Source: a virus (Duplodnaviria > Heunggongvirae > Uroviricota > Caudoviricetes). From it: a DNA stretch of 64,000 nucleotides. The position numbers were made by a program, and so were the translations under genes. Where the stretch lies: the IMG/VR virus record IMGVR_UViG_3300044296_000239. One strand, given 5' to 3'. Shown in pieces: positions 17,335-57,072 of the stretch. Positions within the stretch are counted from its first letter, which is position 1; each line of letters begins with the position of its first letter. The notes under the pieces were generated by a model. The model was not told the DNA's origin. It worked only from the letters and a program-made list of their open reading frames with translations, and ran no database searches.

Positions 17335-17335
17335 T

Positions 17336-20100: not shown

Positions 20101-20181
20101 CGTCTCTATCCTTATACTGGTTTACTAAATCGATGAACCAATAGATGAACACCGCGACTACGATAGCACAAACGATATAGA

Positions 20182-21057: not shown

Positions 21058-21199
21058 GTCAGTAAGTTATTAATTGTGTCGATGATCATCTGTACCTGTG
21101 CTGGATCCAATTTCATTCGCGAAGCAATCTCATATACATCGAGGTGACGCTCGAGAAACTCGCGCACTTGCAGTATTAGATCATGCTTATAGCTCATGA

Positions 21200-21529
21200 T
21201 TATTCCTTCCAAAATTCTCCGATATCAAACCATCTGTCTTCGATGATGTGGCCAATTGCTTTAATCGGGCCAGTGAATTCATTGTCCTTACGTATGCGTA
21301 CGAGCTTGCCTTTTAGATCTTCCCACTCTCGCACATCGACAGTCTCAAGGATCTTGCGAATGGCTTGAATTGATTTGCTATGACCAATCTTACCAGCTTT
21401 TCCATCGAGCGCATAACCACCGAACCCTTGACCGCATCCACCCATATCCATCATCAATGAGAATGTCATGATGCCGTGGTCCTCGATGCCTAACATTGTC
21501 GAACTAATCTTTGCATTCGTTACGTACAT
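21200..21529 (-). CDS. hypothetical protein
   Basis: start trimmed to MYVTNAK (RBS GGAG; stop/start overlap TGA/ATG with the upstream gene). Confidence 0.45.
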   Translation of the reverse strand: MYVTNAKISSTMLGIEDHGIMTFSLMMDMGGCGQGFGGYALDGKAGKIGHSKSIQAIRKILETVDVREWEDLKGKLVRIRKDNEFTGPIKAIGHIIEDRWFDIGEFWKE

Positions 21530-21530
21530 A

Positions 21531-21893
21531 TCAACTCCATGTCCTATGGACCTCTGCGATCCACTCTTTTCCATCATATTCATCGACTTCCCAATCCACG
21601 CCATCAGGTACATCAACGATCTTAAGATCTGAGAATCGACTATTTGCTGCTTCACCGAACTGCTCGATCACAGCAATCAAATCTTCATCAGCGCGATTAC
21701 GTCTAAATTCATAGTCACTGATGTAGTGATCATCCTCACCCTCATGGCCTTCGTGGTAATAATCATGACCGGTCAAATTGAAATACTTGCCTTTGACCTT
21801 CACATACTTGATGCCTTTGCGATCAAGCAAAGCATCGAATGCTTCCTCTGATAGACCGAATCCACCGTAGCATGTATTAATTGCAACTTTCAT
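21531..21893 (-). CDS. hypothetical protein
   Basis: 120-aa ORF MKVAINTCYGGFGLSEEAFD... Confidence 0.5.
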   Translation of the reverse strand: MKVAINTCYGGFGLSEEAFDALLDRKGIKYVKVKGKYFNLTGHDYYHEGHEGEDDHYISDYEFRRNRADEDLIAVIEQFGEAANSRFSDLKIVDVPDGVDWEVDEYDGKEWIAEVHRTWS

Positions 21894-22068
21894 TATCTAA
21901 ATCCTTCTGTACTTTTTTCAATGCTTTAATCAGATGTGGGATTATCTTCTGATCGAAGTTTACGACGTAGAGACCGTAGTCCATCATTCTCAAGCATAGA
22001 CGACCTTTCTCTGTATAAACTTCTAGTCTCGGATTCCCGACGTGATCCTTTATCATATGTCTGCTCAT
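21877..22068 (-). CDS. small hypothetical protein
   Basis: 63-aa ORF. Confidence 0.35.
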   Translation of the reverse strand: MSRHMIKDHVGNPRLEVYTEKGRLCLRMMDYGLYVVNFDQKIIPHLIKALKKVQKDLDNESCN

Positions 22069-33954: not shown

Positions 33955-34472
33955 AGTAATTCTTCCAATCGTGTGCCTTCTTTTGTATTATGAACGATGA
34001 TGTTGAATCCTCTGTATTTTTGCCATCTTTCACGCCAATGTATGTATAGATCAAATTGCGCTCTATTGCGTTCAATGATTTGATCTGTTCTAGTTTCTTG
34101 TGTATCTGCCCAAATCGAATCGAATCCCCACAGATGTATTTCATCATAGTCATGTTCTATTGCCCAATCAACTGCTACATGACCGGCGCTCATATACTTT
34201 TCAAGATACGGTACTTTGTGCCATATCTCAAATTCATGTGTTATCTCTTTTTCTTCAAGCGTTGGCATTGCATAAACAGAGGTGATGATAGGTTTATGTT
34301 GAAATAGAGATCTATTACCGCAATACTTTAAAAATGGTCTTTTATCTAATACAACAGATACATCCACTGGATGATCATGTATATTACAACCTATAACAAA
34401 ATTGTCTACGGGGGCATAAAGTGCCAAGCTTGGTCCGTTACCTAATACATCTGCGCGCATTATTTGATCCAA
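33951..34472 (-). CDS. hypothetical protein
   Basis: 173-aa ORF; the palindromic TATTTATAAATA late motif is upstream on its strand. Confidence 0.55.
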   Translation of the reverse strand: MDQIMRADVLGNGPSLALYAPVDNFVIGCNIHDHPVDVSVVLDKRPFLKYCGNRSLFQHKPIITSVYAMPTLEEKEITHEFEIWHKVPYLEKYMSAGHVAVDWAIEHDYDEIHLWGFDSIWADTQETRTDQIIERNRAQFDLYIHWRERWQKYRGFNIIVHNTKEGTRLEELL

Positions 34473-34495
34473 ATCAATGTTTACATGCTTTTATT

Positions 34496-34503
34496 TATAA
34501 ATA
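34496..34503 (+). promoter_or_regulatory. T4-type late promoter TATAAATA; the near-palindrome TATTTATAAATA can be read on both strands
   Basis: exact TATAAATA 54 nt upstream of the ATG at 34557; the same element in reverse could serve the divergent gene 33951..34472. Confidence 0.5.
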
Positions 34504-34508
34504 CATCC

Positions 34509-34531
34509 AGAGGCAAAAAATGCCTCTTTTT
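34509..34531 (+). terminator. leader stem-loop with U-tract (attenuator/terminator-like) between the late promoter and the operon start
   Basis: AGAGGCA-aaaaa-TGCCTCT followed by TTTTT. Confidence 0.4.
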
Positions 34532-34556
34532 ACACAACAACAACGGAATTTCAAAA

Positions 34557-35225
34557 ATGTACAAAAAGGTCGCCACAAGCGTGCTTTTTGTTATGTTTAC
34601 ATTAAACGCTTGGGCAGTAGATCCAATCGTAACTGACTCGACTTCAAATAGCACTGCATATTCAAAATCCGATACAACTACTAAAGTTATATCTCCACCT
34701 CCAACTGCTGTTGCACCAGCTGTAACAGTAATCAACAATGACGTTTGTGCCACAGCAGCTAGTGGTGCAGTTCAAACACAGATTCTTGGCATCTCTATGG
34801 GCGGTACAGTTAGAGATATGAATTGTGAAAGAATCAAACTATCAAAGAATCTATATGACATGGGCATGAAAGTTGCAGCTGTTGCAACGCTATGTCAAGA
34901 TGATCGTGTATTCCAAGCTATGTTAGATGCCGGTACACCATGCCCAGTTATGGGTAAAATTGGCGAATCCGCAAAAGAAGTTTGGATTCAACGCGGTCGT
35001 GTTAGCGAAAAAGATATCGTAAAACAAACTCCTGAAAAAGCAAAGGAAGAACCACTAAGAGAAACTGGTAAAGATGGAAAGGAGGCGCAGGAGACTTCAC
35101 AGTCAAATGCTGAAACGTTTCCAGTCGCAAGACAGTCAACTGTGGTGGCAAATCCCCTCTGTGCTGCTGATCCTAAAGTTGCTGCTGGTGATCCTGTAAG
35201 AAAAGCTGAACTCGGCTGTAACTAA
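34557..35225 (+). CDS. secreted protein (signal peptide), first gene of the late plus-strand operon
   Basis: start trimmed to MYKKVATSVLFVMFTLNAWA|VDP; Thr/Ser-rich region, 4 Cys. Confidence 0.6.
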   Translation: MYKKVATSVLFVMFTLNAWAVDPIVTDSTSNSTAYSKSDTTTKVISPPPTAVAPAVTVINNDVCATAASGAVQTQILGISMGGTVRDMNCERIKLSKNLYDMGMKVAAVATLCQDDRVFQAMLDAGTPCPVMGKIGESAKEVWIQRGRVSEKDIVKQTPEKAKEEPLRETGKDGKEAQETSQSNAETFPVARQSTVVANPLCAADPKVAAGDPVRKAELGCN

Positions 35226-35227
35226 TC

Positions 35228-37630
35228 ATGCGCAAGTTTCTAGTATTCATTTACTGGACTTTTGCTGTTGTTGCTGTGTGGAGTGGTGATATTGTTGCTC
35301 CACAAGCACAAGTTGGTTCAGTAATAAACACAGTCACTGATACTTCTACGACTGCTAACCTAATCACGTCACCATTATCGCCAACTGTTAATGCTACTAC
35401 ACCAGGTGGATTCACTGGTGGTAGTTCAGTTGGATACAATGCATCAACTAATGCGTATTATTTTGGCTATATGCAAAGAACTATTGCTACTTCTGTAGCA
35501 ATTAATAATGCATTACAGGGTAGCGGTGTACAGGTGAATGGTGTTAAGTATGGTATGACATATCTTAACGGTGCTGATTCATATGGCACATTAAGCATGG
35601 CAGTTAATGTTACTAGTAACACTGGCACAACTCTACAGTCATATAATCATTCATTTAATACTCAAAACTCTACTTGGCAGCAGTTTGACCAAACACAAAC
35701 GTTTACTAACCCATATGCTTTAGCAAATTTGGGCAATGTTAGCATGTCCATTACAGGCAAAGACTCTCGTTTTTGGGCAGGTTATTATGGTCCACAAGTG
35801 AAAGATCCATATCTTAAACTAACATACGGTTCTGATCCTAAGACATACTATAACATTTCTGATGATGGTTATGTTCCAGTTGCTTTACCATTTACGTTTC
35901 CATTTTATGGTAGAAACTTTACACAATCATATTTCTTTTCCAATGGTGTAGTTGGTTTCTTAGATCCTACCACTCATTGGAATAGTTTTTGTTGTGATGG
36001 TGTAAATTTAACTAACAATCCTGGATCTCCATGGCATTTCGCGATCTATGCTTTGCAGACAGACTTGATTGCAGCAAATGCAAATGCTAAGTTCTATACA
36101 CAAACTGATAGTAGCTCATACATGAAGTATGCATGGAGCAACATCAACGAATATGGTACACAAAACTTAAACACATTCAGTGCAACTATTAAGCCAACCG
36201 GTTATATTGGTATCCAACATGATGCTATCAACGTTCAGTATCATAACGTAACGACTGGCATCGCAGGTGATTTATCACAAGGTCAATATAGTCAATACTA
36301 TAATGGTCCAGGAAGATCATTTCCATATACAGCTGGTTCTGTGATCACTTTTACTGGAACAGAAACAAATCTATGTTTCTCTAATCCATTAAGTAACCCT
36401 TCGTGTCCAGGATATGCAGCTGCGTACTACTCACAGCAGTGTTCTATTAGTGCACTGTATGACTCATCATGTCCAGGATATGCAGCTGCATATTTAGATC
36501 AACAGTGTTCGGCTAATCCATTATATTCCACAACTTGTCCTGGGTATGAAAGAGCATATTTTAATCAACAATGCTCTTTAAATCCACTATACAACATCAA
36601 TTGCTCTGGATATGCTACTGCTTATCACAATCAACAGTGTTCATTAAATCCTCTTTATGCAACAGATTGTGTTGGTTATGCAGATGCTTATTATGTTCAA
36701 CAATGCACAGCAAATCCGCTATATGATAGCGGATGTACAGGTTATGCAGCTGCATTTAAAGCTCAACAATGTAGTTTAAATACATTATATGCAACAGACT
36801 GTCCAGGTTATGCTCAAGCATATTTCAATCAACAATGTTCTCTGAATGGACTCTATGATAGACTTTGTCCTAATTATTCTACTGCTTATGCTACCAAAAT
36901 GTTGCTCGAACAACAAAATACTGCTAGCATCGTTGCCACCGCTGGTGTTGTTGCTTCTACTGCACCTAGCACTAGCACAGGAACTGCCACCACATCAGTG
37001 AGTAGTGATGGTACTGTATCAACTACTACTACATCAGCAACTGGTAACACAACAGTTGATAAAGTAGTTGCTGCACCAACAAGTACAACAAACACAGCTG
37101 CAGCTCCTGCCGCTCCAGTTCAATTAGTACAATCAGCACCTCCTCCATCATCACCAGTTGCACCTCAACAACAGGCTTCACAACAAGAAAAGAAACCTGA
37201 AGGTGGTCAACAAAAACCTGAAGGTAGTAGTCAACAACAAGCTGGTGGACCACAACAACAAGGCGGAGGTCAACAAGGTGGTGAGAAAACACAACCGACT
37301 AATCGTCAAGCTTTAGCTGAACGTAGATTAGAAGCTGCGCGAGCAAAAGCAGTTGAAGAAGGTAAAAATATGGCAGGCGAAATTGGTAAAGCATCAGATC
37401 TTGAAGCACAAAAAGCAGTACAAGGCGTTGTCGTTGCTGCTATGAACTTCGTTCCAGGATTTGATCGTTATTCAACAGTGTTTGTACCAGATGTGATCGG
37501 CTATAAACCGTTTACTGTCTATAATAATCAAAAAACCGTAGATAATGCTAGATTGATGAGAGGATTATCTGGTGCCTCAGATAGATTACATGAGGAAATC
37601 GTAGCATCACAATATAACAAAGGAAATTAA
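35228..37630 (+). CDS. large secreted/exported protein with 7.5 Cys-containing 22-aa tandem repeats, Thr/Ser-rich and Gln/Pro-rich low-complexity regions
   Basis: 800 aa; N-terminal signal-like MRKFLVFIYWTFAVVAVWSG; repeats CPGYAxAYxxQQCSxNPLYxxx x7.5; C-terminal QQQASQQEKKPEGGQQKPEG. Confidence 0.75.
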   Translation: MRKFLVFIYWTFAVVAVWSGDIVAPQAQVGSVINTVTDTSTTANLITSPLSPTVNATTPGGFTGGSSVGYNASTNAYYFGYMQRTIATSVAINNALQGSGVQVNGVKYGMTYLNGADSYGTLSMAVNVTSNTGTTLQSYNHSFNTQNSTWQQFDQTQTFTNPYALANLGNVSMSITGKDSRFWAGYYGPQVKDPYLKLTYGSDPKTYYNISDDGYVPVALPFTFPFYGRNFTQSYFFSNGVVGFLDPTTHWNSFCCDGVNLTNNPGSPWHFAIYALQTDLIAANANAKFYTQTDSSSYMKYAWSNINEYGTQNLNTFSATIKPTGYIGIQHDAINVQYHNVTTGIAGDLSQGQYSQYYNGPGRSFPYTAGSVITFTGTETNLCFSNPLSNPSCPGYAAAYYSQQCSISALYDSSCPGYAAAYLDQQCSANPLYSTTCPGYERAYFNQQCSLNPLYNINCSGYATAYHNQQCSLNPLYATDCVGYADAYYVQQCTANPLYDSGCTGYAAAFKAQQCSLNTLYATDCPGYAQAYFNQQCSLNGLYDRLCPNYSTAYATKMLLEQQNTASIVATAGVVASTAPSTSTGTATTSVSSDGTVSTTTTSATGNTTVDKVVAAPTSTTNTAAAPAAPVQLVQSAPPPSSPVAPQQQASQQEKKPEGGQQKPEGSSQQQAGGPQQQGGGQQGGEKTQPTNRQALAERRLEAARAKAVEEGKNMAGEIGKASDLEAQKAVQGVVVAAMNFVPGFDRYSTVFVPDVIGYKPFTVYNNQKTVDNARLMRGLSGASDRLHEEIVASQYNKGN
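36404..36895 (+). repeat. in-frame 66-nt tandem repeat array (about 7.5 units) inside the 800-aa CDS
   Basis: units beginning tgtccaggatatgcagctgc... recur every 66 nt with diverged wobble positions; each unit encodes two Cys. Confidence 0.8.
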
Positions 37631-37631: not shown

Positions 37632-37952
37632 ATGGCAACACAAGATACAAAGGGCGCATTCATAGAGAAGTTGTTATTTGCTCTATTACCGCTGATCATG
37701 GCAGGTGTAGGTTATTTACTAAATTCAGTAAGTCAACTTAATCACCAAGTAACAATTTTAGAAAGCAAAGTAAGTCTAGTAGTTACACAGGATAACAAAC
37801 AAGCATCTAACACTGGTAGTGAACTTGCTCGTGAAAAACTACGCCAAGACTTAACAGAAGCAATTCAAAAGAATCGTGATGCGATCCAGGCGAATAAAGA
37901 AATGATTGCTATTATCGAAGAAAAATTAAAACACATGAACAAAGGAAAGTAA
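37632..37952 (+). CDS. small membrane protein with coiled-coil
   Basis: 106 aa; TM LLFALLPLIMAGVGYLL; ATG overlaps the upstream stop. Confidence 0.6.
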   Translation: MATQDTKGAFIEKLLFALLPLIMAGVGYLLNSVSQLNHQVTILESKVSLVVTQDNKQASNTGSELAREKLRQDLTEAIQKNRDAIQANKEMIAIIEEKLKHMNKGK

Positions 37953-37953: not shown

Positions 37954-38466
37954 ATGTCAGAAGAAATCAAAAGCGTCGATGCAAAGATTGACGAAGCAGA
38001 AGCCGCTGTAAAGAAGTATGCTAGTAAAGATACAGTAATCAGCATTGGTGGATATGAATTTACACCAGCTAAGTTGATGGTTGCGTTTACATTAGCATCA
38101 TCAATTCTTGGTGGTTTATATGGAACGTTTGAAGTCTACAAAGACTATCAAAGTATGAAGAAGCGTATCGCTGAGTATGTTGCGCCGGACCTTTCAGAAC
38201 TTCAAGCTAAGATGGATATCGTAGTTGAAAAGTCAGAGAAGTCTGTTCAATACACTCAAGATATTAAGAATGATCTTAAACAAGACATTCGTCGTTTAGA
38301 AGGTGTGGTTGATTCAGTTGAACGTAATTCAAAAGCAACTGAACGTGAGTTGAGTGTAGATATGAGAAACCTTCGTAAAGAAACTGAATTAGCTATTAAA
38401 GAAACTAATTCTAATGTTGATAAGAAGATTCAACGAGCATTAGATAACCCGTTAGCTAACAAATGA
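37954..38466 (+). CDS. membrane protein with coiled-coil
   Basis: 170 aa; TM LMVAFTLASSILGGLYG; coiled C-terminus. Confidence 0.6.
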   Translation: MSEEIKSVDAKIDEAEAAVKKYASKDTVISIGGYEFTPAKLMVAFTLASSILGGLYGTFEVYKDYQSMKKRIAEYVAPDLSELQAKMDIVVEKSEKSVQYTQDIKNDLKQDIRRLEGVVDSVERNSKATERELSVDMRNLRKETELAIKETNSNVDKKIQRALDNPLANK

Positions 38467-38578
38467 TTAATGTACTCATAGATTTATGGGTGAATCATGT
38501 ACTACATCTTTGGTTTATGCCATACTTTATAGCAGGTAAAACCACAGAGAATGAACTGCACGAATGTGCAAAAAGAAA

Positions 38579-38601
38579 GGGAGCGTAAGCTCCCTTTTTT
38601 T
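38579..38601 (+). terminator. rho-independent terminator (bidirectional)
   Basis: GGGAGC-gtaa-GCTCCC followed by T7; near-copy of the 16379-16401 element. Confidence 0.7.
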
Positions 38602-38782
38602 ATTTCTTCTTAGTATCTTCTACTTCAAGCTTTTTGTGTTTCTTGATCTCTTTGCATTGCTCAGTTACTTTTCCTGTCTTTGCATCCTTAACTTCTACAC
38701 AAGCCTTTTCTTTTTTGACCTCTCCTGCATACACATATTGTGTGCCTAAGGCGATACAAATTGCCAATAAAATTTGTTTCAT
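38600..38782 (-). CDS. small secreted Lys-rich protein
   Basis: 60 aa; signal peptide MKQILLAICIALGTQYVYA. Confidence 0.4.
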   Translation of the reverse strand: MKQILLAICIALGTQYVYAGEVKKEKACVEVKDAKTGKVTEQCKEIKKHKKLEVEDTKKK

Positions 38783-39001
38783 TTATTTTCCTTTCGATGA
38801 AAATTTTTCTGAAGCTGTAAATCCTAAACCAGCTACTACTATATACATCATTGAATCAAACAACGCTGGTGTAACTTTATGACCAAGAGTATCAGCCACA
38901 AATCCACCAGCACATAACAAGAATGACAAGAGAGTAATAACTCTTTTTGAAGAAACAGTCCCGTTATCTCCATCTTGTAACATACTTGATAACCAATTCA
39001 T
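38783..39001 (-). CDS. small two-TM protein, holin-like
   Basis: 72 aa; two hydrophobic helices, charged C-terminus; lies in the candidate lysis cassette. Confidence 0.4.
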   Translation of the reverse strand: MNWLSSMLQDGDNGTVSSKRVITLLSFLLCAGGFVADTLGHKVTPALFDSMMYIVVAGLGFTASEKFSSKGK

Positions 39002-39002
39002 T

Positions 39003-39527
39003 TTATAACTCTGGTTGTGGTGGTTGCACAGGCATTGGTTTACCCGTTGAACTCATTACAACTTGCGGTGTGAAGTTGGCAACTGGTGCTTGAATCACTA
39101 CAGGTTGTGGAGGAGGAGTTGGATTTAAGATAGCAGCTTGTGCCAATGTATTTTTCGCTGCAGCATCTGCATTTGCTTGTGCTTGCTTTTGCGCTTCTAA
39201 CATTGCCTTTTGATCTTCTGGTTTTTGACCAGCTAACATGATACCAGAGAGAGTACCAGTTAAGAACGTCGCGATAGGTACAATCAACTCAAAGAATTTT
39301 TGGTCGATAGGACTAATCGCATTCAGTGGTTGTGTAACGAAGATCAATGAATACAAGACAACGAATACGATTCCGAATAATGTAAGTGTTAGACAAATGC
39401 CGATGAAAAATTTTAATCGAGCCATCAGCTGCTCTTCTGTGTATATGAAATTATTTTCCACAGTTGGCTCCTTGATTAGTAGGTTGTACACTAATTGCTT
39501 TACTTTGTTGAGTAGTATCTTTATCAT
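39003..39527 (-). CDS. membrane protein with Ala/Gln-rich helix and Pro-rich C-terminus (i-spanin-like)
   Basis: 174 aa; TM FFIGICLTLTLFGIVFVVLYSLIFV; then AMLEAQKQAQANADAAAKN...PPPQPVVIQ. Confidence 0.45.
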   Translation of the reverse strand: MIKILLNKVKQLVYNLLIKEPTVENNFIYTEEQLMARLKFFIGICLTLTLFGIVFVVLYSLIFVTQPLNAISPIDQKFFELIVPIATFLTGTLSGIMLAGQKPEDQKAMLEAQKQAQANADAAAKNTLAQAAILNPTPPPQPVVIQAPVANFTPQVVMSSTGKPMPVQPPQPEL

Positions 39528-39738
39528 CTGGCATTCCTAATCTAGGGTCTCTTCCACCCTTAAAAACATGTTCTGGACAAGTTCTCGTCACGTCACATAG
39601 TGGTTTCTTACACATCTCTTTATCCCAATTGTGGGGATCTTGACATGGGTATCTAAATTTATCTTCGCTAAAAATTGCTAATCCTAATGGAAATAGTAAA
39701 AGCAATAATAGCCATCTTACTAGCTTTATATCACTCAT
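39451..39738 (-). CDS. small secreted Cys-rich protein (o-spanin-like position; no lipobox)
   Basis: 95 aa; signal peptide; 6 Cys; its 3' end overlaps the downstream gene in another frame. Confidence 0.4.
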   Translation of the reverse strand: MSDIKLVRWLLLLLLFPLGLAIFSEDKFRYPCQDPHNWDKEMCKKPLCDVTRTCPEHVFKGGRDPRLGMPDDKDTTQQSKAISVQPTNQGANCGK

Positions 39739-39739
39739 A

Positions 39740-40405
39740 TTATGCTCCCATTACATGCAGAGCGTGTTGATAGTGGGCAATTCGATCTTCTAGACCGATG
39801 AATCCGCCATTAATCGCTTTTGTTAATCCTTTGATATCACCTGCATCTGCAAATTTATTTAGGTTATTATTTTCCCAGAACCAACAAGCAGATTGTGCGG
39901 CACCTTCAAACGTTTGTAGGTATTCTGCGGCTTCTTCTACTGGAATATCTAATGACGCAGCAAACCAAGAATAGTTTGATTTACCAGTCAATTGGATTAG
40001 ACCTCGACCACAGTAACGATATCCGTCACCTGTTTCAGGTCCACCGTTACCCATACGGTTTGCATAAACTAAGTTAGCAATTGCTTCTTGTTTATTTGGC
40101 TTAGAAGCATATTCATTTGCCATCTCATCTGTCGGGAAATACTTCGGAAAGATTTTACGAAGTGTTACAGCTTTATAATTTAAGTTTTCCTTAAGAACCA
40201 TAAACCCACCGGATTCATGTGCGCATTGCGCAATAAATGCAGCAATTCGCTGTGGTGTGTTTATCTCATATTCTGGTAGCAATTGTGCTAGTGCACGGTG
40301 CCAATGGTCAACGTATGGATTCTTTGGGAGAAGCTGTTTTAATTGTTCTAATGATAATTCCATCTTCACTCCAATATATGTTGAATAATTCATGTCATAT
40401 GACAT
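39740..40405 (-). CDS. GH19 family endolysin
   Basis: 221 aa; YRYCGRGLIQLTGKSNYSWF GH19 core. Confidence 0.75.
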   Translation of the reverse strand: MSYDMNYSTYIGVKMELSLEQLKQLLPKNPYVDHWHRALAQLLPEYEINTPQRIAAFIAQCAHESGGFMVLKENLNYKAVTLRKIFPKYFPTDEMANEYASKPNKQEAIANLVYANRMGNGGPETGDGYRYCGRGLIQLTGKSNYSWFAASLDIPVEEAAEYLQTFEGAAQSACWFWENNNLNKFADAGDIKGLTKAINGGFIGLEDRIAHYQHALHVMGA

Positions 40406-40518
40406 GTTACTATTTATATGTTACATATATCGGGAGCGAAAAAAGGGGACAAACGTCCCCTTATATCTATCCCCTGGCCCTTATAGATCTATCTATAAAA
40501 AGCCATTTCTCTGCAGCG

Positions 40519-40836: not shown

Positions 40837-41289
40837 TTAGAATGAAACTTTCAAACCAGCAGAAACTACATTACCATCAAAGTTATTTACGCGAGATTGA
40901 ATCGCGCTTTGATAGCGATAATCTGCAGTCAATGCGACTGATTTAGTTAATGAATAGCTTGCGCCTACACCAACTGAGCCTTGCCAACCACTAGCAGTAG
41001 ATGTTGGATCAACAAATGCAACACCAACTTTAGGAGTAATAGTAACTCCAGCAACTGTTGCTACATCATAACCAGCAACTAAGCTGTAACGATTAGTGTC
41101 ATTAGAGTTTTGTGTATAGCGTTCAAATCCGCCAGTAACAGAAGTCTTACCAAACTTTTCGCCGAGTGTTACACCAAAACCATTTTTATCTGGATTTTGT
41201 GAATAATCACGTTGAGCTGTAAGACCAACTTCTACTGCTTGTGCAGAACCTGCTACTAACAATGCTAAAATAGCTAATTTAACTTTCAT
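40837..41289 (-). CDS. outer-membrane beta-barrel protein (OmpX/Ail/Lom-like 8-strand type)
   Basis: 150 aa; signal MKVKLAILALLVAGSAQA; alternating hydrophobic beta-strands with Gly/Tyr girdles; C-terminal beta-signal ending in Phe (GLKVSF). Confidence 0.6.
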   Translation of the reverse strand: MKVKLAILALLVAGSAQAVEVGLTAQRDYSQNPDKNGFGVTLGEKFGKTSVTGGFERYTQNSNDTNRYSLVAGYDVATVAGVTITPKVGVAFVDPTSTASGWQGSVGVGASYSLTKSVALTADYRYQSAIQSRVNNFDGNVVSAGLKVSF

Positions 41290-41324
41290 TGAAATATTTC
41301 CTTTTCTAGTTTAAAGATCAAGAG

Positions 41325-41704
41325 TTGGTTTTTCTGTTACGAGGTAAACCAACTTAAACCCTAAGCAGCGTTTAGGCTGCTAATGCATAACTTTCGTCAT
41401 TTGCATTTACTTAGTTTGCTTCTTCGGCCAAGTTTCCTCAACCCTACGGGTTTCACATTCCCGTGTTGCCGTCTCTACTATCTACCTCTGTCGAAACCAT
41501 GGCATCCCCATCAAAAACATACTAAGGTGAAATGAACTTACTAAGTAGAGGTTCCGGCTTACCAATCCTGATCCCAACCTTTCGGTTTTGTAGAGATTTA
41601 AGTATGTTTTTGGTGGAGATGGGCGGAGTCGAACCGCCGTCCAGAAGTCCTTCGCTTTGAAGGGATTACAACAATTCCTCGTCCACTTTCTTCCAGCTAT
41701 TTTT
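41325..41704 (-). ncRNA. ssrA: circularly permuted (two-piece) tmRNA gene (ssrA); acceptor piece about 41611-41704, coding piece about 41325-41510
   Basis: coding piece: GGGGAUGCCAUGGUUUCGAC...GGGAAUGUGAAACCC (P2) ...GCA AAU GAC GAA AGU UAU GCA UUA GCA GCC UAA = ANDESYALAA*; upstream acceptor piece: T-arm GGCGG-UUCGACU-CCGCC then CAUCUCC-A-CCA, which pairs with GGGGAUG; candidate promoter TGGACA-N16-TATACT at 41711-41738. Confidence 0.7.
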
Positions 41705-41832
41705 GCCTTCAGTATAGTGTCCTATATATTTTTGTCCAGTCTCTTGATCTATTAATAACCATTTACCAGGACATTTTGTGCGAATAGTTAAAGTTTTAGC
41801 TTCATCTAATTCTTTAACACTTGTACCATCTT

Positions 41833-42435
41833 TTAATTTACGTTTTCTGTCCATGTTGCAACAATATATTTTTCATTAGAAATAGGAGGATTGCCGCGAT
41901 GAGTATGTGTATATCCAACAGGGAAAAGAACAATTCTTCCTTTTTTTGGTTTAATTCTTCTAGGATAATACAAAAATTCAGTTTCTCCACCCTCGTCAAC
42001 ATCATTAAGATAAATCAAAATGGCCAATATTCTATTACTATCTTCTTTTCCACTATTTTCATAATGCCATACATGATATCCACCACCTACCGATGTTCGT
42101 TGAAGTCTATGACCCCATAATCCATAGCCTCTAGACAATAAAACATCATATTTTTTATTATATTCATCAATACATTCACGAATGGCTTTATTCATGACAC
42201 CAGCTAAGAATGTATTAATGACTTTTACATCATCCAAATGTTCTTCATGTAAAAAATATGTTGTATCATCTTTGTGAACTTTTTCAATTCTTTCAGCTTC
42301 TTGTCTACTAAACGTACGTTTATTAGTTAATGCCCATTGATCCACATAATGGTAATGATTAATCAATTGTTCACAAATAGTTTCTGGCAAAATATCATCA
42401 AATACACCAATAAAATCTTGAATATCACTTTTCAT
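41833..42435 (-). CDS. 2OG-Fe(II) oxygenase, prolyl-4-hydroxylase-like
   Basis: 200 aa; GGETEF, HTHRG and C-terminal strand GRIVLFPVGYTHTH; paralogue of 48077..48622. Confidence 0.65.
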   Translation of the reverse strand: MKSDIQDFIGVFDDILPETICEQLINHYHYVDQWALTNKRTFSRQEAERIEKVHKDDTTYFLHEEHLDDVKVINTFLAGVMNKAIRECIDEYNKKYDVLLSRGYGLWGHRLQRTSVGGGYHVWHYENSGKEDSNRILAILIYLNDVDEGGETEFLYYPRRIKPKKGRIVLFPVGYTHTHRGNPPISNEKYIVATWTENVN

Positions 42436-43034
42436 TTTAATTTGTCTCTCATTTCTTCATATAATTCTGTTCGCTTAGCTGCATTGATAACTCCACCGGT
42501 GATTCGCTTAGTCATACCGATCATATCTTCAGCATCAGCATAAGCATTTAAATCTTTAATCATCCACACCCAACATGCTGAATGTACAGCGCCTTGTGGT
42601 GTGATGATATAATCTAATACATCTTCTATGCCAAAACCTGCATGTTCTGCAAATTTTCTATATGAATCTTTTCCAGTGATATGTAATAAGCCTCGTCCTT
42701 TATAGCGAGAACCATCACCAGATTCTTCACTACCATTTCCAAATCTATACGCATATATTCTATTTGCGATAGAATTTTCTTTATGCATATATGCTTCAGC
42801 AATCACTTGATTATTAAAGTGAGCAGGAAACAATATCATTAAATTGTTTCTGCTATAATTTAGATTTTCTTCAACGCACCTGAACTCTAACGACTCATAT
42901 GATGCTTGTGAAACAAATGCCGCCACACGCTTAAGCGTATTAATCTTATACTTATCAAAGAATAGCTTGAATGCCTCTATCCAAACTTTTTCTTCGATTA
43001 CTGATTCAAGCTTATCATAATATAATTGTAACAT
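42432..43034 (-). CDS. GH19 family lysozyme (third GH19 paralogue)
   Basis: 200 aa; SRYKGRGLLHITGKDSYRKF. Confidence 0.7.
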   Translation of the reverse strand: MLQLYYDKLESVIEEKVWIEAFKLFFDKYKINTLKRVAAFVSQASYESLEFRCVEENLNYSRNNLMILFPAHFNNQVIAEAYMHKENSIANRIYAYRFGNGSEESGDGSRYKGRGLLHITGKDSYRKFAEHAGFGIEDVLDYIITPQGAVHSACWVWMIKDLNAYADAEDMIGMTKRITGGVINAAKRTELYEEMRDKLK

Positions 43035-43773: not shown

Positions 43774-43802
43774 GAGATATCCTTATAATATCTCTATTTA
43801 TA

Positions 43803-52975: not shown

Positions 52976-53051
52976 TGGTACCCAGTGTTGGACTCGAACC
53001 AACATCGCTCTCCTTGTAAGGGAGACGTATCACCTCTCTACGCAACTGGGC
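52976..53051 (-). tRNA. tRNA-Val(UAC)
   Basis: manual fold: acceptor GCCCAGU/ACUGGGU, anticodon loop CUUACAA, T-loop UUCGAGU, CCA encoded. Confidence 0.7.
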
Positions 53052-53174
53052 ATAATTCTTTGGGGTGTCATACGAGTATCGATCTCGTACCACCAGTTTC
53101 ACAGACTAGTATGCAGGCCACTACACTAATGACACCATAGATCAAAATACACTCTTTGAATACACTTTGATTTA

Positions 53175-53249
53175 TGGTAGGGGCACAGAGAATCGAACTC
53201 TGATTTACTGGTTAAAAGCCAGTTACTTTAGCCGTTAAGTTATACCCCC
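53175..53249 (-). tRNA. tRNA-Lys(UUU)
   Basis: acceptor GGGGGUA/UGCCCCU, anticodon loop CUUUUAA, T-loop UUCGAUU, CCA encoded. Confidence 0.7.
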
Positions 53250-53277
53250 ATCATCTTTCGAGGTTTATGTTTTCGTT

Positions 53278-53469
53278 TCATCGTCTTTTCTTCCATTCAT
53301 AATCGATACCATCTGGACATACTCCGTTTTTCACAGAATCTATACCAAACTTACCGCATACTTCCATGTTGTTTCCTTTGATTGTTACAAATGTACCCAA
53401 TTCTTTTGCGTACTCTAATGCTTCATCAAGTGTTTTAAATTGTTTTTCGTTTATACTATACATTATCAT
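53278..53469 (-). CDS. small hypothetical protein inside the tRNA array
   Basis: 63-aa ORF between tRNA-Lys and tRNA-Gly. Confidence 0.4.
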   Translation of the reverse strand: MIMYSINEKQFKTLDEALEYAKELGTFVTIKGNNMEVCGKFGIDSVKNGVCPDGIDYEWKKRR

Positions 53470-53470
53470 T

Positions 53471-53543
53471 TGGAGCGGGAGACGGGATTCGAACCCGCTC
53501 CGTCAGCTTGGAAGGCTGAGTCCTCTCCCAGGAGAACTCCCGC
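53471..53543 (-). tRNA. tRNA-Gly(UCC)
   Basis: acceptor GCGGGAG/CUCCCGC, anticodon loop CUUCCAA, T-loop UUCGAAU, CCA encoded. Confidence 0.7.
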
Positions 53544-53807
53544 AAATTAGATGGAGATAAGAATTCAATTCAGACCGCGATAAGTCGCTCAGCAACCTGC
53601 AACTAGCAATACGCAACATGCAGGCCACAAAGTCTATATTCCCATTAGCAATAAGCAGCGACTTAATGTCAGTATAATGGGAGCAACTAACTATGGGTTG
53701 GCCGTTGTTAGTCGGATTAGCTTTCAAGGCTAACCAATTCCAGTAAAAGTGGAATTGTTTGTGCGCTTATCTAATGCAGATCCTCTTATCCTTCTTACCT
53801 CCGAAAA

Positions 53808-54392
53808 TTAAACTAAACCTTCCTCTTGAAGAGTCAATTTAGTTGGATCACTCAATTGAATGAGTGTGTTAACATTTAGCTGCAATAGCTTATCAGCTAG
53901 ACCTTGACGCTCACGCTTCAACATCTTTACCGTTGCCTTTGCAGCTACGATATCTGTCTCAGATACCACAGTAGTGTCAACGTTGTTGTAACGTTCACCA
54001 TATAGTGCACTACGCGCATCTACTGGAGTTTGCTTCATCTTAACGATGCGCGCATTGATCTCGCTAACGTCTTTACGAGGCTGTGTATTTACAACTACGT
54101 TATTGATTGCGATCTGTGCATCAATTAATTCAACATCAGCCAATACATCGCTAATGCCGCTTTCAACGTTTGCACGTCCCACTGCAGCTCGAATCTGGTA
54201 CAAAGCTTTATTCAAAGCTTCTTTACGCTCAAGCGCTTGTTTAAATTCTAATGCACCTTTACTCAAGGTACCTTCTACATCTGCAGTGAATTCATTCACT
54301 ACGATATCTGTTTTTGTGTTTACGCCGCCAATTGCACGACGAAGTTCACTTTGGATTGCATTTGCTTTACGAAGATTAATTTGCATATTCAT
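53808..54392 (-). CDS. hypothetical protein
   Basis: start trimmed to MNMQINLRK (RBS AAGGAAA); the ORF-track N-terminal extension would run through tRNA genes. Confidence 0.55.
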   Translation of the reverse strand: MNMQINLRKANAIQSELRRAIGGVNTKTDIVVNEFTADVEGTLSKGALEFKQALERKEALNKALYQIRAAVGRANVESGISDVLADVELIDAQIAINNVVVNTQPRKDVSEINARIVKMKQTPVDARSALYGERYNNVDTTVVSETDIVAAKATVKMLKRERQGLADKLLQLNVNTLIQLSDPTKLTLQEEGLV

Positions 54393-54413
54393 TTCCTTTG
54401 CATTGTATAGTAT

Positions 54414-54443
54414 ATTATACCATAATTTTAAATTGTTGTAAAC
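54414..54443 (-). promoter_or_regulatory. sigma70-like early promoter
   Basis: minus: GTTTACA-N17-TATGGTATAAT; directly downstream of a tRNA 3' end. Confidence 0.5.
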
Positions 54444-54538
54444 TGGTACTCCCGACCGGATTCGAACCGATATCATTCCCTCATCTAGAGACATCGCCAA
54501 GGTATAAGCTTGGAGTTTTACCATTAAACTACAGGAGC
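54444..54538 (-). tRNA. atypical long tRNA-like gene (95 nt; anticodon loop CUUAUAC gives UAU; about 25-nt variable region)
   Basis: acceptor GCUCCUG/CGGGAGU, D-arm GUUU-AAUGGUA-AAAC, T-arm AUCGG-UUCGAAU-CCGGU, CCA encoded; identity unresolved. Confidence 0.45.
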
Positions 54539-54545
54539 ATTGATC

Positions 54546-54621
54546 TGGCACCCCGTAAAGGAATCGAACCTCTACCTCAACGTTCGTAGCGTTGTATGAT
54601 CATCCATTTCACCAACGGGGC
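54546..54621 (-). tRNA. tRNA-Arg(ACG)
   Basis: acceptor GCCCCGU/ACGGGGU, anticodon loop CUACGAA, T-loop UUCGAUU, CCA encoded. Confidence 0.7.
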
Positions 54622-54626
54622 ATTGT

Positions 54627-54702
54627 TGGTCCCGACACTTGGTTACGCACCAAGCTCTCTGGCTTTTCAGACCAGCGCTTTCACTAGATTAGCTTTATCG
54701 GG
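54627..54702 (-). tRNA. tRNA-Phe(GAA)
   Basis: acceptor CCCGAUA/UGUCGGG, anticodon loop CUGAAAA, non-canonical T-loop UGCGUAA, CCA encoded. Confidence 0.6.
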
Positions 54703-54711
54703 AAAATTAAT

Positions 54712-54788
54712 TGGTGCCCTAGGAGAGACTCGAACTCTCAGAACCTGGTTTCTAAGACCAGTACGTATACCAATTCCGTCACCAGGGC
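54712..54788 (-). tRNA. class-I-architecture tRNA with Leu anticodon UAG (identity uncertain)
   Basis: acceptor GCCCUGG/CUAGGGC, anticodon arm CUGGU-CUUAGAA-ACCAG, short variable GUUCU, T-loop UUCGAGU, CCA encoded. Confidence 0.55.
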
Positions 54789-54795
54789 ATTGTTG

Positions 54796-55437
54796 TTATT
54801 TCGATTTCATCAACTCATTGACAAAATCTAATAGTAATTGTTGTTTGGGTTTATACTTACCCTTCATCCATGTATATGAATCATACCAAAATTGTTCTGC
54901 TTCAGGATGACAACCTATTAGACCAACATTGTCTTGTATAATTGCCATCGGATCACCGTTCATGTATCTTGCATATGTTCTAAAATTTTCTTCACTTCCT
55001 GTAACTGCAAATCCATCGTAAAAGAACATTCTTTCCCGTCTACCGTTCCAGTCAACTTCCAAATCTTTTGCGTGCGGTCTTCTTGTATCTGTTCCTGGGC
55101 GAGTGATATACTGAGTTGTATCACAAGCATTAAGTATGCCAAAATAATGAGACCCTGCCCAATAACCTCCCATGCATATACCAATGTAGGGTCGACCGGA
55201 CCTGACAAATTTCCGTATATGATCTCTATTATTGACAAACAAGTGACGGAAAGAATCGCTATCACCGAACCCGCCCCCAAAACATATTGCATCAACCGTT
55301 TCAAAGAATCCATTCTCTACTTCCTGCTTAGTGAATAGTTTAAAATCATAATGAGAAGATAACGCAGCCATTATACCATTATTTGACTGCGTTGAACAAT
55401 ATGGTTGTGCAACAAATAAACCTATTTTTGGTTTCAC
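54796..55437 (-). CDS. class-I glutamine amidotransferase-like / BPL_N-like protein
   Basis: 213 aa; GGGFGDSDSF and GICMGGYW (nucleophile-elbow-like Cys). Confidence 0.4.
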   Translation of the reverse strand: MKPKIGLFVAQPYCSTQSNNGIMAALSSHYDFKLFTKQEVENGFFETVDAICFGGGFGDSDSFRHLFVNNRDHIRKFVRSGRPYIGICMGGYWAGSHYFGILNACDTTQYITRPGTDTRRPHAKDLEVDWNGRRERMFFYDGFAVTGSEENFRTYARYMNGDPMAIIQDNVGLIGCHPEAEQFWYDSYTWMKGKYKPKQQLLLDFVNELMKSK

Positions 55438-55451
55438 ATTTTTCCAATATT

Positions 55452-55525
55452 TGGAGCGGGTAGCGAGACTCGAACTCGCAAATAAACCTTGGCAAGGTTT
55501 CAGGTTACCTTTACATCATACCCGC
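55452..55525 (-). tRNA. tRNA-Gly(GCC)
   Basis: acceptor GCGGGUA/UACCCGC, anticodon arm AAACC-UUGCCAA-GGUUU, T-loop UUCGAGU, CCA encoded. Confidence 0.65.
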
Positions 55526-55755
55526 ATGTTTTTTAGATTGAACCTTTGATTTTAATGTCTGGAATAATTGCAGTAATTTTTACTTCTTTTTTATCCTCGG
55601 ACTCTAAATCATAATACTCATCTTTATTTATTGCTTCATCAAATTTTTCAGCTTCAGTTTTCTTTTTCTTTCCAAAGATAGCATCCCAACGATTATCATA
55701 TTCTTCTTGAGAAACACTAAATGGTCTTGGTTTACTTCCTTTTCCACCATCACTC

Positions 55756-55923
55756 ATTTTTTACCTCTGCGCTTTTCAACTTGTTTTTGTTTAATACGTC
55801 CGTCTAAGGCTTGAACTGTGTTTAACAATTTTTGTTTCCATTCCTCTTCACTGAGTGAATGCCAACCGACACACTTAGACGTCAACGATCTACCGCATGT
55901 ACACTTTTTATCTTCAGTCATAA
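55756..55923 (-). CDS. small Cys-containing protein (about 55 aa)
   Basis: MTEDKKCTCGRSLTSKCVGW...; below the ORF-track cutoff. Confidence 0.3.
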
Positions 55924-56564
55924 TAATTCCATTTTATGGATCTTTTTGAGACCTTTGTTTTTAACATAACATTAAAACTTAGCGAAATACGTTCTCCTAT
56001 AAAATTTCCTGGTTGTGTTCCGTGTTGTAACCAACTTGGAAATATAAAAATTTTACCCTGAGTTGGTTTAAATTTATATATTTCAAAATTATTAAATCCA
56101 GGCTTATAGTCAAAAACATACGTATTTGATATTGGTCCTCGAGGATCAGTAAAAAACAAATCTCCTGAACCTTCTGGTGCATTTAAATAAAATACACCCG
56201 AAAACATACTGTTTGGATGATGATGTATTTCATGCTGACTTTTATCAACGTGTGAATTTCCCCACATACAATTAATATGAAGATCTTCGTGTAAAATACC
56301 CATATCATCAACTGCAGCTGCAACTCTACTTAAGAATATATCTCTTATAGGAAACCACTCTTCTCTTAAGTGTAAATCATCTGGACTTACCCAATTTCCC
56401 AATCCAGAATAAACTCCACTATCTTCATTTTCACGAATATCTATAAATTTTTGTGTATATTCATTTAATATTGTTGTATCAGCTAAATGATATTCCCAAA
56501 TTCTAGTTGGAAATAAAGTATGTCTAATTGATTCATCAAATTGTGGAATCATATAATCTCTCAT
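55914..56564 (-). CDS. 2OG-Fe(II) oxygenase-like paralogue (HHH subfamily)
   Basis: start trimmed to MRDYMIPQF; EIHHHPNS, GKIFIFPSWLQH; the untrimmed ORF would read through tRNA-Pro. Confidence 0.55.
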   Translation of the reverse strand: MRDYMIPQFDESIRHTLFPTRIWEYHLADTTILNEYTQKFIDIRENEDSGVYSGLGNWVSPDDLHLREEWFPIRDIFLSRVAAAVDDMGILHEDLHINCMWGNSHVDKSQHEIHHHPNSMFSGVFYLNAPEGSGDLFFTDPRGPISNTYVFDYKPGFNNFEIYKFKPTQGKIFIFPSWLQHGTQPGNFIGERISLSFNVMLKTKVSKRSIKWNYYD

Positions 56565-56566
56565 GT

Positions 56567-56644
56567 TGGTCGGAGATACAGGATTCGAACCTGTGACCCT
56601 CTGCTCCCAAAGCAGATGCGCTAGCCAGACTGCGCTAATCTCCG
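56567..56644 (-). tRNA. tRNA-Pro(UGG)
   Basis: acceptor CGGAGAU/AUCUCCG, anticodon loop UUUGGGA, T-loop UUCGAAU, CCA encoded. Confidence 0.7.
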
Positions 56645-56649
56645 ATAAG

Positions 56650-56723
56650 TGGTGCCCCATCACAGAATCGAACTGCAAGCCTCGGATTACAAAACCGATG
56701 TTTTACCATTAAACTAATAGGGC
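56650..56723 (-). tRNA. tRNA-Thr(UGU)
   Basis: acceptor GCCCUAU/AUGGGGC, anticodon loop UUUGUAA, T-loop UUCGAUU, CCA encoded. Confidence 0.6.
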
Positions 56724-56739
56724 AAATAACTATATATCT

Positions 56740-56814
56740 TGGTGGTAATGGTTGGATTCGAACCAACGTTAGCTTCCGTATGAAGGAAGTGCAAGGCCTC
56801 TTTGCTACATTACC
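56740..56814 (-). tRNA. tRNA-Met(CAU), elongator type (or Ile-lysidine)
   Basis: acceptor GGUAAUG/CAUUACC, anticodon arm CUUCC-UUCAUAC-GGAAG, T-loop UUCGAAU, CCA encoded. Confidence 0.65.
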
Positions 56815-56818
56815 AATA

Positions 56819-56906
56819 TGGTGGGTGTTGATGGTAACGCTCCACGAACTCAACTTCCCACCTCTTAGAGTAACGGATTTACAGTCCGCCGGCGGGGGCA
56901 ACACCC
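56819..56906 (-). tRNA. tRNA-Tyr(GUA) candidate, class II, atypical T-arm
   Basis: acceptor GGGUGUU/AACACCC plus A-CCA; anticodon arm GCGGA-CUGUAAA-UCCGU; long variable region; T-arm does not fold canonically by eye. Confidence 0.4.
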
Positions 56907-56912
56907 TTAATA

Positions 56913-56990
56913 TGGCTGTGCATCTAGGGATCGAACCTAGCTCATTCCTGATTAACAGTCAGGCGCATACACCTTGCTTGCTCATGCACA
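56913..56990 (-). tRNA. tRNA-Asn(GUU)
   Basis: acceptor UGUGCAU/AUGCACA, anticodon arm CCUGA-CUGUUAA-UCAGG, T-loop UUCGAUC, CCA encoded. Confidence 0.65.
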
Positions 56991-56997
56991 ATAAAAT

Positions 56998-57068
56998 TGG
57001 TTGCGGGGGAAAGATTCGAACTTTCTAGGAAAAGCTTATGAGACTCTCCTCTACCCTGACTCCCCGCG
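56998..57068 (-). tRNA. tRNA-Met(CAU), initiator-like (C1xA72 mismatch), short
   Basis: acceptor CGCGGGG/CCCCGCA, anticodon loop CUCAUAA, T-arm GAAAG-UUCGAAU-CUUUC, CCA encoded; D-arm unclear. Confidence 0.45.
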
Positions 57069-57072
57069 ATTT

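Follow-up and report, generated by a model that had tools for sequence, protein, structure and literature searches.

The locus analysed here is a five-gene cassette on the minus strand of a 64,000-nucleotide (nt) stretch of DNA, referred to throughout as the window, from the viral record IMGVR_UViG_3300044296_000239 (Caudoviricetes). The window belongs to the genome of a large T4-like freshwater myophage, in which gp6-, gp5-, gp48/54- and gp32-like genes were found; a near-identity DNA search of isolate phages with the cassette region gave no match. An original prediction, made from the sequence without database searches, had described five open reading frames (ORFs) as a candidate lysis cassette encoding an endolysin, a Cys-rich exported protein, a spanin-like membrane protein, a holin-like protein and a small secreted protein. 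All five ORFs were present where it had placed them (39740-40405, 39451-39738, 39003-39527, 38783-39001 and 38600-38782, all on the minus strand). The genes lie head to tail with gaps of 0-1 nt or an 11-nt overlap: one nt separates the stop codon of the endolysin gene from the start of the gene for the Cys-rich protein, and the last two junctions read TAAAATG and TAAATG. All five are real genes, each with hundreds to thousands of homologues; they are syntenic in relatives and form one compact transcription unit. As a whole, this is apparently a holin-endolysin cassette around an uncharacterised, widespread two-gene membrane module, without a canonical spanin. The genes are as follows (aa, amino acids; TM, transmembrane):

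39740..40363 (longest ORF to 40405), minus strand: GH19a, GH19 endolysin of 207 aa, identified by phrog_181, lysins in the PDB and a GGAG Shine-Dalgarno sequence
39451..39738, minus strand: Cys95, small exported or anchored Cys-rich protein of 95 aa with an N-terminal hydrophobic helix and a conserved Cys core
39003..39461, minus strand: two-TM protein of 152 aa (174 aa in the original prediction) with a conserved GTG start at 39461 and two hydrophobic segments
38783..39001, minus strand: TM72, two-TM protein of 72 aa with two hydrophobic segments and a short basic C-terminus (SEKFSSKGK)
38600..38782, minus strand: sec60, protein of 60 aa with a signal-peptide-like N-terminus (VYA|GE), two Cys and a KKHKKLE motif

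GH19a was assigned to the endolysin family phrog_181 in PHROGs (7.3e-74) and aligned over nearly its full length with phage GH19 lysins in the PDB (9eoi, 8.6e-39; 9ms6, 9.5e-35; 4ok7, 4.1e-32), which bears out the GH19 identity proposed originally. Across the catalytic HES...EN region, AQCAHESGGFMVLKENLNY of GH19a aligned with AQVGHESSQLTRLVENLNY of 9eoi, both Glu residues being identical. The match to Pfam Glyco_hydro_19 reached only 2.7e-4, under the gathering score. No hydrophobic segment was detected in a scan of the protein, which is therefore without a signal or signal-anchor-release (SAR) sequence and, as read from its sequence, is a soluble, signal-less enzyme of the endolysin type. 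Translation most likely starts at the ATG at 40363, because this codon follows a GGAG Shine-Dalgarno sequence, the gene call in the related locus L006 is equivalent, and the first ATG, at 40405, lies just 5 nt past a promoter-like TATAAATA box described below. The window holds three GH19 genes, and only GH19a sits amid membrane proteins (the other positions concerned are 6406-7737, 7739-8989 and 42432-43034, all on the minus strand). A 443-aa protein with a C-terminal GH19 domain adjoins a gp5-like baseplate hub, which itself matches only the N- and C-terminal parts of hub/tail-lysozyme profiles; the 443-aa protein is possibly a separate tail-associated lysin. The third, a 200-aa paralogue, adjoins a tail-fibre-like gene.

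The product of the third gene had been described as a 174-aa type II membrane protein that looks like an inner-membrane spanin (i-spanin). The 174-aa frame proved to be over-extended: relatives carry a GTG or ATG 13-16 codons before an ARLKF motif and behind a conserved AAGGAG Shine-Dalgarno sequence, and in loci L020, L021, L025 and L030 a stop codon directly before the conserved start closes the longer frame. This gives 152 aa from the GTG at 39461, and the product is identical to database protein P0001. An internal start at Met35 was ruled out, as the motif YTE[ED]QLMARLKFF (family-wide RYTxxELxARL[KR]F) is conserved upstream of it. Two hydrophobic segments were found (residues 40-62 and 78-100 in the numbering of the 174-aa ORF), not the single N-terminal anchor that defines an i-spanin. 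Counts of Lys plus Arg in 85 family representatives were 3.28 in the N-terminal flank, 0.96 in the loop and 2.49 in the C-terminal flank, which by the positive-inside rule indicates a predicted topology of N-in, loop-out and C-in. The conserved 16-residue loop between the TM helices (FVTQPLNAISPIDQKFF) is predicted to be periplasmic. The hairpin is followed by an Ala/Gln helix and then a Pro-rich tail ending in the conserved FTPQVVMSSTGKPMPVQP; both parts had been noticed originally and are indeed present, but by the same rule they are predicted to be cytoplasmic. The AlphaFold2 (AF2) model, which like that of Cys95 was used for secondary structure only, was of low confidence (predicted local distance difference test score, pLDDT, 57.6) and contained helices H9-43, H52-75 and H81-111, corresponding to the hairpin and a third helix. 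An exhaustive search resolved the family into 241 clusters at 50% identity, with at least 8000 homologues in metagenomes; the only significant match in PHROGs was phrog_25359 (4.3e-16), a family of unknown function.

Cys95, for which 1169 homologues were found, has the hydrophobic N-terminus and the richness in Cys (five residues) of the original description, and its gene does overlap the next one, by 11 nt rather than 77 nt. The core FRYPCQDPxNWx4Cx4Cx5CPEH was invariant in 52 sequences and is followed by a variable Pro/Thr/Gln linker. The AF2 model (pLDDT 60.8) had a confident helix at residues 3-23 and low confidence in the remainder, and searches of Pfam, PHROG, NCBIfam and the PDB gave no match. 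The conserved C-terminus, QGANCGK, coincides with the Shine-Dalgarno sequence and start codon of the two-TM gene, and its conservation is therefore probably a dual-coding effect.

The two genes were then followed through 400 loci fetched from a viral contig collection in five scans. Genes in these loci were called as greedy longest ORFs, and because such calls are crude the counts of small genes are approximate and probably underestimates. Genes for the Cys-rich and two-TM proteins co-occurred in 87/88 window-like loci, in 79/80 and 76/80 loci of two further sets and in 99/152 diverse loci, their stop and start codons usually overlapping. The identities of lysins in the relatives, which include CHAP/NlpC, were checked with Pfam and PHROGs. 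A GH19 gene lay at most 1.5 kb away, on the same strand as the two-TM gene, in 53 of 80 window-like loci. A second, actino-like branch consists of contigs that encode WhiB (Pfam Whib, 8.7e-11 to 8.6e-18), on which the host inference for this branch rests; here the same criteria of distance and strand gave a lysin in 49 of 80 loci, 34 times CHAP and 15 times VanY. The usual order in this branch is a large secreted protein, a 60-69-aa two-TM protein, a Cys-rich lipoprotein, the two-TM protein and an endolysin, which is either CHAP (Pfam 1.3e-11; phrog_21825 2e-25) or VanY with PG_binding_1. Among 158 diverse loci, 128 had a lysin within three genes (GH19 in 41, CHAP in 39, VanY in 37 and GH108 in 11), and in 76 the lysin was the very next gene. 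For a conserved pair of membrane proteins to accompany at least four unrelated families of cell-wall hydrolases is the classical signature of lysis-control genes.

Some further observations were made in these loci. In MW202675 (L001) the pair lies near a GH19 lysin with a C-terminal extension, and between them (3443-3850) is a signal-peptide-bearing homologue of staphylococcal nuclease (Pfam SNase, 3.2e-10). Downstream of the lysin in L152 (6059-7633) and similar actino-like loci, a Ntn/proteasome-like protein (weak match to Pfam Proteasome, 0.005), a small acidic Cys protein and a secreted subtilase (Peptidase_S8, 3.6e-16) follow in conserved order. The large secreted protein was considered as a part of the conserved core and dropped, as BLASTP of p800, a protein encoded near the cassette, against the actinophage large secreted protein found no similarity. 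Matches to the two-TM family in a genome collection (L410-L427) were all on contigs of metagenome-assembled genomes (MAGs) with unrelated taxa (Bathyarchaeia, Saccharibacteria, Bacteroides, Aquiluna and others); these appear to be phage contigs mis-binned into public MAGs, and they give no host information.

The branches differ in how the Cys-rich protein would be anchored. In actino-like loci it carried a lipobox in 72 of 73 cases, the exception reading SASCG, and in diverse loci in 94 of 99 by pattern and about 96 on inspection, since at least two of the five non-matches (LPAGCS and ANACS) look like lipoboxes. Cys95 itself reads GLAIFSED at this position and has no Cys there; among 84 window-like loci, one sequence was canonical, 17 had a non-canonical LAMC and 66 were without Cys at that place. 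In monoderm hosts lipoproteins remain on the outward side of the cytoplasmic membrane, and in Gram-negative hosts they are normally sent to the outer membrane by Lol sorting. A lipid anchor in the actinophage and diverse branches together with the lack of a lipobox here fits a task on the outside of the cytoplasmic membrane and not at the outer membrane, and loss of the lipobox with retention of the hydrophobic N-terminus would fit Cys95 staying beside its partner in the inner membrane.

Judged from gene context and sequence features, the region 38572-40462 is probably a late lysis operon in which the two-TM protein and Cys95 form a holin-type module. That the cassette serves lysis, as proposed originally, is the firmest part of this reading and is very likely, given a signal-less GH19 enzyme, a compact unit, and a pair that stands beside at least four unrelated lysin families in related and distant phages. 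For the 152-aa protein itself to be the pore-former is close to, though short of, an even chance, and the role of Cys95 as its external regulator is proposed only tentatively. Both the 152-aa protein and TM72 have the features of a class II holin, being small, with two TM segments, N-in/C-in and a hydrophilic C-terminus. The former is the better-supported candidate, because its family adjoins differing lysins across the branches, often with no other small TM protein detected nearby, whereas the corresponding support for TM72 is confined to the window's lineage. By a crude hydrophobicity test, no other small TM protein was detected within three genes in 89 of the 158 diverse loci, which may leave these with the two-TM protein as their sole holin candidate. 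TM72 is a second candidate, for holin or antiholin, and has the more classical holin shape of the two.

Under this model of a lysis operon, GH19a would accumulate in the cytoplasm because it has no export signal, and the 152-aa protein would insert in the inner membrane with both ends inside. Cys95, translationally coupled, would be exported yet remain on the outer side of this membrane, probably bound to the conserved 16-residue periplasmic loop of its partner. Together the two may act as a holin-type module that permeabilises the membrane at a set time, allowing GH19a to reach and cut the peptidoglycan. Cys95 could tune or gate the trigger in an antiholin-like or co-holin role, with TM72 as a putative second holin or antiholin. 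A wider form of the model, which we regard as possible rather than probable, is that the Cys-knot protein and the two-TM hairpin make up an unrecognised and very widespread two-component holin or lysis-clock system of phages of Actinobacteria and Proteobacteria. The partner's lipid anchor in monoderm hosts would have been exchanged for a peptide signal or anchor in this diderm lineage, the protein staying at the cytoplasmic membrane, and lysis would proceed without canonical spanins, through sec60, through p106 or p170 (coiled-coil proteins encoded next to the cassette) or through none of these.

Several observations count against a holin-type module. Comparison with curated families, suggested as a check alongside the original prediction, was made with Pfam, NCBIfam and PHROGs, and no holin, antiholin or spanin family matched any of the four small proteins; profile searches of both conserved families against PDB sequences also found nothing. 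Homology of the two-TM family to the D29 holin gp11 was rejected (hhalign probability 0.4%). The TM hairpin and loop are nearly invariant within the lineage, which is unusual for holins and may point to a role in a specific protein-protein interaction, and the AF2 models are of low confidence. A recognised holin, GTA_holin_3TM (1.8e-10), was the next gene in about 20 diverse loci, and another small TM protein was nearby in 69 of the 158 by the same crude test, so that the two-TM protein could be a regulator and not the pore. About 20-25% of loci had no lysin within the fetched flank, and in Actinomycetia phage DSL-LC01 the pair follows a holin-like protein and adjoins a ribonucleotide reductase gene, not a lysin. 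The exact TATAAATA promoter box was found in only 1 of 62 relatives. The functional assignment is, finally, one of guilt by association.

The alternative that survives best is that TM72 is the actual holin and the Cys95/two-TM pair a module for lysis timing or inhibition, an antiholin or sensor comparable to T4 RI acting on holin T; we consider this rather unlikely. TM72 has the shape of a classical small class II holin (72 aa, two TM segments, short basic C-terminus), with SSKR before the first segment and the motif SSKRV...AGLGFTASEKF; its gene starts 1 nt after the upstream stop codon, and 1440 homologues were found. It accompanies the pair in 53 of 88 related loci and is absent from the other 35. 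Different small proteins take a similar place elsewhere: a small two-TM protein just upstream of the pair in the actino-like branch, and GTA_holin_3TM or another small TM protein next to it in other loci. The actino-like protein was examined as a homologue of TM72 and rejected (hhalign probability 1.9%), the two being positional analogues only. The near-invariant hairpin and loop of the two-TM protein would also fit a binding or regulatory role. The loci in which no other small TM protein lies near the lysin speak against this alternative, as does the lack of detected homology to T4 RI or to any antiholin model. The match of TM72 in PHROGs was weak (phrog_1322, "membrane protein", 0.012), and no lysin adjoins the weakly related genes of Caulobacter phage Cr30 and Microcystis phage Mel-JY01. 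The two TM segments of the holin-like 72-aa protein described originally are present, while a holin role for it finds no support outside its lineage. The relative in Cr30 (L428, 3483-3731; 34% identity, 3e-4) lies inside a baseplate-hub cluster without lysis context, flanked by gp26/gp51-like hub genes and a large protein that matches tail-associated-lysin/tape-measure profiles.

A function outside lysis is less probable still. The pair might serve envelope protection or superinfection exclusion, in the manner of T4 Imm and Spackle, or anchor the secreted proteins p253 and p800 of the convergent operon, and merely travel with lysin genes. The genes of that operon nearest the cassette are:

34464..37630, plus strand: p253 and p800, signal-peptide-bearing proteins of the convergent operon
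37632-37952, plus strand: p106, with one hydrophobic segment and a coiled coil
37954-38466, plus strand: p170, with one hydrophobic segment and a coiled coil

The neighbourhood is indeed rich in exported and membrane proteins (p253, p800, p106, p170 and an outer-membrane protein), and a small periplasmic protein paired with a two-TM protein resembles the architectures of Spackle and Imm. Furthermore, p253, p800, p170, Cys95 and the two-TM gene follow one another on one strand in about 22 window-like loci, which places the convergent operon of the window in the same linkage group, and actino-like loci have a large secreted protein just upstream. These points are outweighed by the company that the pair keeps. 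It accompanies four chemically different lysins (the glycosidases GH19 and GH108, CHAP peptidase/amidase and VanY peptidase), which excludes an inhibitor specific to one type of lysin; in most cases it is translationally coupled to the lysin gene or lies directly beside it; and p800 and the actino-like large protein have no detectable homology, so that this linkage is not conserved across lineages. The p800 protein (35228-37630, plus strand; 800 aa) has a signal-like N-terminus and about nine 22-residue repeats in tandem (CPGYAxAYxxQQCSxNPLY), each of which contains two Cys. It also has a long linker rich in Ser/Thr/Pro/Gln and a C-terminal domain that is conserved, and it matched nothing in Pfam or PHROG.

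The assignment in the original prediction of the long membrane protein as an i-spanin, extended to the overlapping Cys-rich gene as an outer-membrane spanin (o-spanin)-like partner and TM72 as the holin, is very improbable: the genes do overlap as in some spanin pairs, the Cys-rich partner is small, Cys-containing, exported and in other lineages equipped with a lipobox, the long protein contains an Ala/Gln helix and ends in a Pro-rich stretch, and a host that is probably Gram-negative (beta-barrel outer-membrane protein, beta-type tmRNA) would lead one to expect a spanin, but the protein has two TM segments in a low-confidence AF2 hairpin with its helix and tail predicted inside, the order of a Cys-rich gene followed by a membrane gene is the reverse of the usual i-spanin then o-spanin, a canonical lipobox occurs in 1/84 members of the Cys95 lineage, and no spanin model in Pfam, PHROGs or NCBIfam matched a small protein of the cassette. 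The occurrence of the family also argues against an i-spanin, for its range goes beyond phages whose hosts have an outer membrane: WhiB-encoding actinophages commonly carry the pair, in their case next to CHAP and VanY lysins, and such phages should not need spanins. No credible lipoprotein was found among ORFs in all frames between 33 and 44 kb, the only canonical lipoprotein of the window being encoded at 61254-61973. The only i-spanin-like architectures near the cassette are p106 and p170, which are encoded on the opposite strand. In relatives both are linked to the pair: about 25 of these have the p170 gene immediately before Cys95 in the same orientation, and in L018 p106 separates GH19 from Cys95. 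The two proteins were considered as i-spanins and set aside, for there is no o-spanin partner and the p170 relative of HTVC115P is not near a lysin; family searches with both (Pfam, PHROGs, NCBIfam) gave no match. That relative, gp49 of Pelagibacter phage HTVC115P (L430, 2766-6187; 2e-27), is flanked by gp52 and gp48, each with a single TM segment and a coiled coil, and by a 685-aa Gln/Asn/Ala-rich protein, in a recurring trio.

The original prediction was right that the cassette does not use homologues of T4 e, t or pseT: Pfam, PHROGs and NCBIfam gave none for the five cassette proteins. A comparison with T4 e, t, rI, rIII and pseT.3/pseT.2, confined to these five proteins, p106 and p170, found no homologue. 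The window covers only 64 kb of the phage genome, and a T-like holin or a spanin may be encoded elsewhere in it. The signal-like N-terminus and Lys-rich character of the last protein, sec60, were likewise confirmed. Its ATG directly abuts the TM72 stop codon; it was present in 39-48 related loci, and the homologue in L006 (65 aa) has the same C...C...KKHKKLE pattern.

The transcription unit is bounded by two hairpins, and a box resembling a late promoter lies between the upstream one and GH19a:

40443..40462, minus strand: terminator-like hairpin, 8-bp stem with 5 GC pairs followed by a T-run (AAGGGGACGTTTGTCCCCTT TTTTCGC)
40411..40418, minus strand: TATAAATA box, a perfect T4 late-promoter consensus, 48 nt upstream of the GH19 ATG at 40363
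38572..38601, no strand assigned: bidirectional terminator-like hairpin, stem of 13 bp on the plus strand and 9 bp on the minus strand, with a T-run after each

The first hairpin closes off p84, the gene before the cassette, and forms the upstream limit of the latter; an equivalent is found at the same place in close relatives (L006-L008 and L015). The last is common to the cassette and the convergent plus-strand operon. The TATAAATA sequence was not enriched in the window (7 copies against 7.35 expected). Although coding sequence makes up about 91% of the window, six of the seven copies lie 6-48 nt upstream of gene starts on the same strand. Copies were noted at 3080-3087, 11919-11926, 34492-34499, 40411-40418 and 43795-43802 (all minus strand) and at 34496-34503 (plus strand); they precede structural genes, the cassette and the convergent p253-p800 operon, a placement like that of T4-type late promoters. 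In close relatives in which GH19 opens the transcription unit, (A/T)ATAAATA is kept after the hairpin. We infer that the box at 40411..40418 works as a promoter and that the cassette is likely to be expressed late; given conservation of the exact box in a single relative, the late promoter is retained as weak support, although its placement is convincing.

The host is probably a betaproteobacterium, judging from the type of the phage-encoded transfer-messenger RNA (tmRNA) and an outer-membrane protein gene. The tmRNA is a one-piece molecule of the betaproteobacterial type (RF01850, 122 bits) with the tag ANDESYALAA. Two genes upstream of the cassette (40837-41289, minus strand) is a gene for a small beta-barrel protein of the outer membrane that carries a signal peptide (Pfam OMP_b-brl, 1.9e-7), which implies a host with an outer membrane. 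The tmRNA is accompanied by an array of 24 tRNA genes (41315-41737 and 52976-58863, minus strand). The GC content is 0.43-0.47 at about 14000-22000, compared with 0.32-0.39 across most of the window, and this stretch includes a 571-aa ORF (14560-16275) with no PHROG match.

Lysis genes are for the most part still without annotation in the majority of aquatic phages, the abundant T4-like and actinobacterial phages of freshwater among them, and the pair neighbours cell-wall-degrading enzymes in hundreds of phages that are uncultured. As a holin-type marker open to testing, it would help to locate lysis cassettes in the genomes of thousands of such phages, and it could exemplify the regulation of a holin from outside the membrane. 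The switch of the partner from lipoprotein to non-lipoprotein represents a natural experiment on envelope architecture. The present phage, in which a spanin appears to be missing although the host is probably Gram-negative, also provides a further case for asking how phages without spanins get through the outer membrane.

Among known systems, the GH19 phage endolysins (Salmonella phage SPN1S, 4ok7; 9eoi and 9ms6) are the closest to GH19a, which resembles them over its full length and conserves their HES...EN region. It is set apart by an identity of only 40-53% to proteins of the isolate phage collection and by being one of three GH19 genes in the window. Melnitz, an OM43 phage that is likewise T4-like and tmRNA-bearing, was considered for comparison and rejected, as it falls in another group and lacks a GH19 cassette. 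Two-component spanins are represented by lambda Rz/Rz1 and T4 PseT.3/PseT.2. The cassette shares with them overlapping genes for a membrane protein and a small exported Cys protein, next to an endolysin gene and with a host that is probably Gram-negative, but differs in the two TM segments, the cytoplasmic tail, a lineage without the lipobox, the reversed order and a family that extends to actinophages.

T4 holin T has a single TM segment and a large periplasmic domain, and the T and RI genes are dispersed in the T4 genome. The likeness, in what is also a T4-like phage, is a functional parallel only: an exported, membrane-tethered periplasmic protein could regulate a lysis protein of the inner membrane. 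Here, in contrast, only a 16-residue loop is exposed, the genes are adjacent, and the cassette proteins have no match to the T or RI families. Class II holins, such as S21 of lambdoid phage 21, have two TM segments with N-in/C-in topology. Like them, the 152-aa protein is small and has two TM helices, with its N- and C-termini predicted on the cytoplasmic side; its tail is hydrophilic, and its gene adjoins that of the endolysin. Unlike them, it has a longer tail (helix and Pro-rich motif), an unusually conserved hairpin, no sequence or profile similarity to any curated holin family and, in place of a dual-start antiholin, an exported Cys-rich partner that looks obligatory.

In mycobacteriophage D29, LysA2a (the gp11 "holin") has two TM segments and a C-terminal coiled coil and acts with LysA2b and the lipoprotein gp64, a 137-aa beta-sheet protein that is encoded far from the cassette, is dispensable and modulates lysis (bioRxiv 10.64898/2026.08.27.747656). 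The window and its relatives resemble D29 in a two-TM N-in/C-in protein with a helical C-terminal extension, in accessory membrane proteins and, for phages of actinobacterial hosts, in a lipoprotein. They differ from D29 in showing no homology to gp11 and in the nature of the partner, a Cys-rich protein with a four-Cys core of about 30 residues that is encoded immediately upstream of the two-TM protein, in overlapping codons.

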